A stretch of 23,815 nt of DNA from a virus. Its lineage: Duplodnaviria > Heunggongvirae > Uroviricota > Caudoviricetes. The position numbers were made by a program, and so were the translations under genes. Shown one piece after another: positions 16,347-17,869 of this stretch. The notes beneath the pieces are model-generated. The model was given only the letters and a program-made list of their open reading frames with translations. It searched no databases and was not told the origin of the DNA. The DNA is taken from IMG/VR virus record IMGVR_UViG_2850796239_000008. The stretch is one strand, 5' to 3'. Every line of letters starts with the position of its first letter. Position 1 is the stretch's first letter.

Positions 16347-17212
16347 GCTACAGACAACGTAAAATAACGGTGGAGTTCACTCTTTCAGACGGACGAACGT
16401 TTGGTAATGGCCAGGGCAATATGCTGACCATTACCGACGCAAGCTGTTTTGCCAGTATTGGCGTATATGGAGGGGTGGCTGGTACACAAATCACGCTGTA
16501 TATCTGGGGAATGTCACCGGCGCATATGACGAATTTAAGCTGGCGCGGTGTGTGGCGACAGGAGCAGAGTACCGCAAATAAAATGCGGCTGTGGGCCGAC
16601 GGGCGGCTTATTTTTGAAGGTGATATTACTGATGCATACGCCGACTACAACCAGGCGCCGGATATTCCGCTCATTCTGACAGGACAGATTCATTTTAATC
16701 TGCGTAATCAGCCGGCGGCAGATTTCAGCGCAAAGGGCGATGTTGCGGTTGCAGATATTATCCGTGCGCTGGCGTCAACTGTCGGGCTTGGATTTGAAAA
16801 CCAGGGGGTCAGCCGCAGTCTGTCTGACCCGCATTTTTCCGGTAATGTTGTACAACAAATGCTGGATGTCGCTTCAGCCGCCGATATTAACATTGATCTG
16901 GGGAATGTGGAGAAAGTCACCATCTGGCCGAAAGGGCAGAACCGGAATATTCCGCCGGTACTGATTTCGCCGGATCACGGACTGACTGGCTATCCGGTTT
17001 ACACCATGACCGGACTCAGCGCCACCACGATATTCTGCCCCGATCTCTTTACTGGCAGGCCAGCGCATCTGGAATCGTCACTGCCTGATATGACGGGCGA
17101 TTATACGATCACAGGGGTGATACACACCATTACTTCGCGAACCGTGGGCGGTCCGTGGAGTTCCAACTGTACCATGATGAGGGCTGAAGAAAATGGCACA
17201 ACCACTCAGTAA
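16343..17212 (+). CDS. Phage baseplate-region protein, 289 aa (hub-like position upstream of the spike gene)
   Basis: ATGA overlap with the upstream gene; sits immediately before the spike gene. Functional assignment is by position only. Confidence 0.55.
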
Positions 17213-17869
17213 CCCGACAGACGTGAACAGCGAAATCAATGCACAGGACTTTATGCTGCGGCAGTTTCTCGGACGTCATGCGTTTATCACTCTGGGACGG
17301 GTGGTAGCCGTGGAAGAGGGATTTATTGAGGCCCGACCGATGGTAATGGGCGTTGCAGCAGACGGTTCCCCGGTTGAACATGAGGTGATTTATAACATTC
17401 CCGTATGGCGACTACAGGGGGCGGTAATGCGGTGATTATGCCGCCACATGTGGGGGATATCGGTTTTCTTGCCATCTGCGATCGGGATATCAGTGCGGTA
17501 AAAGCCACGCGTCAGGCTGCGATGCCGGGATCAAAGCGTACCCATAATTATGCTGATGCCATCTGGCTGGGTGGCGTGCTCAACGGTGATCCCGTCCAGT
17601 TTGTGGTATTTGATGACAACCAGATACGGATTGTATCTCCCTGGAAAGTGGAGATATCCGCGCCTGAGGGTGTGATTAATGCGCCGAAAAGCTTCACCGT
17701 TAATTCACCACAAATTGCGCTGAACGGCGATACCGCCGTCAGTAAGGGGCTTGACGTTACCGGGCAGTCCAGGCTTTCCGGCGGTTCGAACATCGGGGGT
17801 ATTGATTTTGGAAACCACGTTCACGGCGGCGTTGAGTCCGGCGGCTCAACCACGCAGGGACCCCGGTAA
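17193..17869 (+). pseudogene. Baseplate spike protein (P2 gpV / Mu gp45-like), split by a frameshift in a G5 run
   Basis: ORFs 17193-17435 and 17405-17869 are contiguous if one G is added to GGGGG at 17417-17421 (...NIPVWRLQGGGNAVIMPPHVGD...); C-terminal HVHGGVESGGSTTQG resembles the spike apex motif. Confidence 0.7.

Follow-up and report, generated by a model that had tools for sequence, protein, structure and literature searches.

A baseplate spike gene split at a G homopolymer in a Shigella-type prophage remnant: a probable consensus error of a PacBio assembly

Introduction

The described systems closest to the gene analyzed here are membrane-puncturing tail spikes and, for the way in which the gene is interrupted, a set of long-read bacterial genomes. 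Among solved structures, the best sequence matches are gp43 of the Pseudomonas phage E217 (8eon_F) and the SN puncturing protein gp41 (4ru3). A third relative is phi92 gp138 (3pqh/3pqi); going by the PDB hits and the names, we take it that the Pfam family PF18352 and the product name in RefSeq derive from this protein. P2 gpV (PF18946, TIGR01644) and Mu gp45 (3vtn/3vto/9ki1) resemble the present protein in their C-terminal HxH apex.

The genomes are those of the CDC historical Shigella set. According to two papers, records numbered CP0267xx-CP0268xx come from the PacBio sequencing reported by Kim et al. 2018. A remark in Yassine et al. 2022 describes homopolymer indels as numerous in the CDC PacBio-only Shigella assemblies, which were left out of typing there; it concerns the assembly set as a whole, not any individual site such as the one analyzed here.

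The locus lies in a stretch of 23,815 nucleotides (the window, IMG/VR record IMGVR_UViG_2850796239_000008), assigned to the Caudoviricetes. In this record, a baseplate spike gene appears as two open reading frames (ORFs) that meet at a run of five G. An earlier sequence-only reading proposed that the two are one gene if the run is read as six G, and offered either a sequencing artefact or a slipped-strand inactivation of the tail tip as the cause. We compared the locus with its relatives, and our findings strongly favor the first of these options.

Results

A central spike gene recorded as two ORFs

The central baseplate spike gene, of the Gp138/gpV/gp45 type, occupies positions 17193-17869 on the plus strand. 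It is assembled as an 80-aa ORF (17193-17435, plus strand) and a 154-aa ORF (17405-17869, plus strand), both starting with ATG, which overlap in different frames. Between them lies the run GGGGG at 17417-17421 (plus strand), read from the sequence in the context GACTACA GGGGG CGGTAATG; relatives have six G at this place. The first 75 residues of the N-terminal fragment are authentic and are followed by an out-of-frame tail, AVMR*, while the C-terminal fragment encodes what is left of the OB domain, followed by the beta-helical part and the HxH apex.

Adding one G to the run yields a single ORF of 225 aa that is 100% identical to WP_000068497.1 (protein haplotype P0001), annotated in RefSeq as a membrane-puncturing spike protein and present intact on 673 contigs. 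Since both fragments match one intact protein residue for residue, chance falls far short of accounting for the agreement, and the proposal that the overlapping ORFs are one spike gene is borne out.

The identification as a baseplate spike also holds. The repaired protein scores 33.1 bits against the Gp138_N-type family PF18352 (gathering cut-off 26.1; residues 45-127) and 25.8 bits against the GpV Apex family PF18946 (cut-off 20.8; residues 207-224). As assembled, neither fragment reaches the PF18352 cut-off of 26.1 bits: the 80-aa ORF alone has no Pfam match, and the 154-aa ORF alone scores 21.7 bits for Gp138_N and 25.0 bits for the Apex family, the latter above its cut-off of 20.8. Solved spikes are matched as well, namely 8eon_F (E = 3.6e-9), 9b45_g (3.7e-9), 9zd7_P (4.2e-9), and 4ru3_A (4.3e-9), with weaker matches to 3vtn_A (E = 7.5e-5) and 3pqi_A (E = 6.7e-4). 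In UniRef the protein is named "Mu-like prophage protein gp45."

The domain layout proposed from the sequence needs one correction. Its N-terminal OB-type domain is confirmed, and the repaired protein carries the apex motif HVHGGVESGGSTTQG at residues 209-223, with its HVH (residues 209-211) placed opposite HKH in the alignment to the solved tail tip gp86 (9zd7_P). However, RLQGGGNAVIMPPHVGDIGFLAICDRD, which had been described as a separate central segment, sits inside the OB domain at residues 45-127. Because the Pfam match spans these same residues, the frameshift, at codons 75-76, splits the OB-type domain itself.

A comparison with P2 gpV and Mu gp45 had been suggested, and it succeeds only in part. 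The C-terminal domain of Mu gp45 aligns with the spike (E = 7.5e-5), but the P2 gpV model TIGR01644 gives 24.3 bits against a cut-off of 46.75, with the match limited to residues 150-223. The score falls below the NCBIfam cut-off, and the spike therefore stands outside the P2-V subfamily in the sense of TIGR01644.

The surrounding genes agree with this assignment. The cluster runs from plug (PF22479) and hub (PF22759) through spike, sheath initiator (PF10934), baseplate J (PF04865), and wedge-1 to the fibres, so that the spike follows directly after the hub and precedes the gp25-like sheath initiator, which is the place expected for it in a baseplate core. All of these genes lie on the plus strand. 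A Dit-like baseplate gene at 15450-16044 is truncated at its 5' end and lacks the first ~113 nt relative to positions 10335-11045 of the related locus L001. It is followed by an intact Pam3 gp18-like baseplate plug gene (16044-16346; PF22479, 80.2 bits) and an intact E217 gp41-like hub gene (16343-17212; PF22759, 32.6 bits against a cut-off of 27), whose end overlaps the start of the spike gene by 20 nt.

Downstream, the gp25-like sheath initiator gene (17882-18237) is itself split, into 70 aa and 81 aa, at a G4 run (18013-18016) that is G5 in all relatives; PF10934 is matched on intact relatives, and one additional G in this run restores WP_001191863.1 exactly. The next three genes are intact: the baseplate J/gp47-like gene (18234-19475), the baseplate wedge-1 gene (DUF2612; 19477-20082), and a tail fibre gene (Gp34_trimer; 20069-21301). 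In a second tail-fibre gene (21836-23113), G4 at 23037-23040, which is G5 in relatives, alters the C-terminus.

On these matches, we identify the gene as encoding the central, membrane-puncturing spike of a prophage with a contractile tail. By homology, the product would trimerize, dock on the hub through its N-terminal OB-type domain and plug it, and extend as a beta-helix to a metal-loaded HxH tip that pierces the outer membrane.

Run length of the G tract in relatives

Related loci were fetched by exact matches to the neighboring baseplate J, wedge, and fibre proteins, a choice that is unbiased with respect to the state of the spike gene. In all 27 loci from other assemblies, which include Illumina drafts, NCTC assemblies, and enteroinvasive (EIEC) genomes, the spike site carries six G. 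The same longer form is found in 18 of 18 places across nine RefSeq E. coli genomes with the prophage. A single in-frame ORF with G6 is the conserved state on approximately 1,000 contigs, and the spike homologue is one continuous match in every deposited phage genome that has one (752/752). Relatives thus carry one ORF, as do the 752 phage genomes, and the separate conservation of two ORFs, which would have spoken against a single interrupted gene, is not what we found.

The same conservation weighs heavily on a reading in which the G run is functional, either as a site of programmed ribosomal or transcriptional slippage or as a phase-variable contingency tract that switches the spike on and off. 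Two points can be cited for it. With five G, a -1 re-pairing of tRNA-Gly from GGG at 17418-17420 to GGG at 17417-17419 could formally give the wild-type QGGGN, and G5 is seen on three spike haplotypes. Nevertheless, programmed frameshifting would call for a two-ORF layout with its slippery site conserved among relatives, and these show one ORF with G6 instead; neither spike fragment is conserved by itself, and the remnant offers the spike no partners. A tract of five to six bases is also short compared with known contingency loci, which counts against phase variation. Given the conservation of the single ORF, we set both forms of the reading aside as unsupported, and we consider a functional role for the run very improbable.

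The short form is rare and concentrated in one source. The 80-aa product occurs on only seven contigs, five of which come from the same PacBio project. After repair, the three haplotypes that carry G5 are P0001 in the window, P0004 in locus L004, and P0005 in locus L008, and each also exists as a common G6 form (673 contigs for P0001, 126 for P0004, and 137 for P0005). G5 is therefore not inherited together with the haplotype.

Run-length variation is seen neither among the 27 independent loci nor at the 18 RefSeq places, and what remains is one Logan contig with G5 and a set of draft contigs that end on either side of the run. The Logan contig, L008 (SRR8186611_248, position 3225), carries G5 on the S. 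dysenteriae-type haplotype P0005 with zero other homopolymer deletions. A natural G5 allele may exist somewhere, and L008 is the only candidate for it. The sequence of another Logan contig, L009, is noisy: it lacks a single base at four places within 1.15 kb. In four Illumina-type drafts (L035-L038; GCA_037110415.1, GCA_036579705.1, GCA_036580185.1, and GCA_036580165.1), contigs stop at CATTCCCGTA and resume at TAATGCGG, leaving a gap of exactly 20 nt, TGGCGACTACAGGGGGGCGG, around the G run. Prophage copies with runs of unequal length may be behind these gaps at TGGCGACTACAGGGGGGCGG, or the assembler or the chemistry may have had trouble at poly-G.

Taken literally, the three haplotypes could mean that the G6 tract is a mutational hotspot that contracted independently on the window, P0004-type, and P0005-type haplotypes in Shigella prophage copies. 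On this view, decay of the tail module would repeatedly have begun with this contraction, and low-level -1 slippage of tRNA-Gly could still yield wild-type protein. We regard this as a speculative and improbable extension.

A frameshift of a different kind is present in the same module. A 4-bp deletion of GTCA, at L001 positions 13636-13639, occurs in L003, L004, L006, L007, and L008 and is absent from the window. It splits baseplate J into fragments of 150 aa and 251 aa, which are found on at least 150 S. dysenteriae/boydii contigs, so this frameshift represents a real and inherited pseudogenization. We rejected the idea that G5 travels with the haplotype marked by this deletion: intact P0005 is present on 137 contigs, under accessions that adjoin those of the GTCA fragment, and the spike of this haplotype is thus normally intact.

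A search with lineage-specific proteins found no second assembly of the window's strain; within the collection, CP026875.1 alone has this tail-fibre-assembly allele. For baseplate J, wedge, and fibre, the window's alleles are common to many assemblies, none of them from the same strain.

Source assembly and homopolymer deletions

The window is identical to part of CP026875.1 (GCA_002950355.1, 5,164,076 bp), a Shigella-type genome, as are the loci L005, L014, L026, and L031. The accession neighbors CP026824, CP026825, CP026842, and CP026845 also carry the 80-aa product.

Against its closest relatives, the window shows exactly five single-base indels; all are -1 changes, and all fall in G/C runs of at least five bases in the relatives. 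Besides the spike run at 17417 (G6 to G5), they comprise position 58 in the housekeeping gene ttcA (C5 to C4), position 8529 in a repressor-like HTH gene (G5 to G4), position 18013 in the sheath initiator gene (G5 to G4), and position 23037 in the second tail-fibre gene (G5 to G4). For instance, ttcA (window 1-480, minus strand) has C4 at 58-61 where relatives have C5, which creates a premature stop at window positions 1-3. Similarly, G4 at 8529-8532 gives the repressor-like HTH protein encoded at 8461-8937 (minus strand) a different C-terminus. That a housekeeping gene such as ttcA is among those frameshifted strongly hints that the indels are assembly errors.

We then counted G/C and A/T runs of at least five bases over the aligned relatives. 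Contraction affected five of 24 G/C runs and none of 114 A/T runs (Fisher p = 1e-4), and no run was expanded. Between 15447 and 18686, the window differs from L001 by two indels and no substitutions, and over 3.2 kb such a ratio is unlike that of natural divergence.

The sister assemblies behave in the same way. Four of them carry 3-10 further -1 deletions each over ~4-5.6 kb of the same module; G/C runs account for nearly all of them, and each assembly has its own set. A second G6 run (L001 9297) is given as G5 in both sister assemblies that cover that site. Undercalling of G/C runs is frequent without being universal, since six-base G/C runs in the window at 9225, 9377, and 13250 are called at full length. 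The deletions are thus limited to homopolymers, go in one direction, are base-specific, vary between assemblies, and are absent from relatives, all of which is characteristic of long-read consensus errors. The pattern is specific to the technology and unlike that expected of replication slippage in vivo.

These observations bear directly on the other cause offered by the sequence-only reading, a replication slip from G6 to G5 in the strain's lineage, affecting a spike already free of selection after the late genes were lost. On the window's haplotype, CP026875.1 is the only assembly in which G5 is found. The four other indels of the window share the same signature (-1, confined to G/C runs, with 0/114 among A/T runs) and include one in ttcA, and two indels without a single substitution across 3.2 kb likewise argue against a real slip. 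The homopolymer indels to which Yassine et al. 2022 refer, in a remark on the assembly set, point in the same direction.

A decayed prophage remnant

The state of the prophage lends a real slip some credibility. The window begins in ttcA and continues into a Rac-like early region with intR, xisR, recE, a Rha regulator, and a helicase. An IS1 copy at 14682-15449, in which terminal repeats are seen, lies at a deletion junction with the missing late genes to its left, and it links the early region straight to the 5'-truncated Dit-like gene. Compared with the intact prophage of E. coli FDAARGOS_943, ~23.5 kb is absent, comprising head, neck, sheath, tube, and tape-measure genes. Additionally, an IS600 (11485-12755), 100% identical to the copy in E. 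coli VL7S7, is inserted within the replicative helicase gene.

A module with IS1 in place of some 23.5 kb of late genes, a truncated Dit-like gene, and an IS600 in its helicase gene is evidently decaying, and genuine frameshifts do occur in sister copies, as the GTCA deletion in baseplate J on at least 150 contigs demonstrates. The clean contig L008 has G5, and the breaks of several Illumina drafts right around the G run may mean run-length heterogeneity between prophage copies. Set against the arguments of the preceding section, these points leave real pseudogenization an unlikely explanation, although the least unlikely of those that compete with an assembly error.

Whatever the state of the spike, the IS1-bounded deletion of head, sheath, tube, and tape-measure genes makes tail assembly impossible in this remnant. 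The suggestion of an inactivated tail tip is consequently moot, as sheath, tube, and head genes had been lost beforehand, and even a real frameshift in the spike gene would have no functional consequence here.

Some observations on the setting of the remnant are recorded in their own right. Downstream of the window's end (L031/L039), ABC-3/ZnuA-type transporter genes of a sit-like operon adjoin the remnant, whereas in E. coli relatives it is ipaH3 that comes after this tail module (L001 19775-21490); the module therefore occupies different chromosomal contexts. An 11-nt stretch, AAAAACCGTGT, at window 2295-2305 is absent from E. coli VL7S7 and represents a non-homopolymer event; AAAAACCGTGT lies close to the DUF1187 and AAA ATPase genes, in intergenic sequence or the early region. 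In the phage collection, identity to the spike does not exceed 60% in any deposited genome and is highest for Pantoea phage PA-1 (43.6%). This prophage tail module, widespread in Shigella, EIEC, and Salmonella, is accordingly without a close free-phage relative in that collection.

Discussion

The explanation we prefer, to which we assign a probability of roughly 80%, is that the missing G reflects an error left in the consensus of an unpolished PacBio assembly, in which G/C homopolymers are systematically undercalled. Under this explanation, the consensus would have dropped one G, so that G6 was called as G5; the true sequence would have six G, and the true gene would be one ORF of 225 aa. 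The identity of the gene, the six G in all independent relatives, and the pattern of G/C-run deletions in the assembly and its sisters are matters of observation. That position 17417 is itself one of those errors is what we infer from them. Of the two causes originally offered, an artefact is thus strongly favored over slipped-strand inactivation, on the combined basis of the error signature, the G6 relatives, and the published remark on these assemblies.

These findings call for caution beyond a single gene. The frequent -1 deletions in G/C runs of CP026875.1 and its PacBio sisters produce false pseudogenes, ttcA included. Split genes in such PacBio records should not be taken as biology until short reads confirm them.

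Comparison with known systems

The interrupted gene and the assembly that contains it both resemble systems described before. The CDC PacBio Shigella set shares with CP026875.1 the accession series and the type of error, namely -1 deletions in G/C runs that differ between near-identical copies.

Among the spikes, E217 gp43 and SN gp41 are only remotely similar to the present protein (E ~4e-9), over residues 42-192, and the apex region of the query lies outside the match. The resemblance nevertheless extends to neighboring genes: the hub matches the Pfam family E217_GP41 and the plug matches Pam3_gp18, on which grounds the whole baseplate core is of the E217/Pam3 type. With phi92 gp138, the spike shares the succession of OB domain, beta-helix, and apex, a score above the PF18352 threshold, and the RefSeq family name; however, the direct match is weak (E = 6.7e-4), and the spike has 225 aa compared with 247 aa in the solved chain. 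The likeness to P2 gpV and Mu gp45 lies in the C-terminal apex; the spike falls below the TIGR01644 cut-off, and the remainder of the prophage is neither P2-like nor Mu-like. Behind the interruption in the record, the spike is an ordinary and previously annotated member of a well-studied family.
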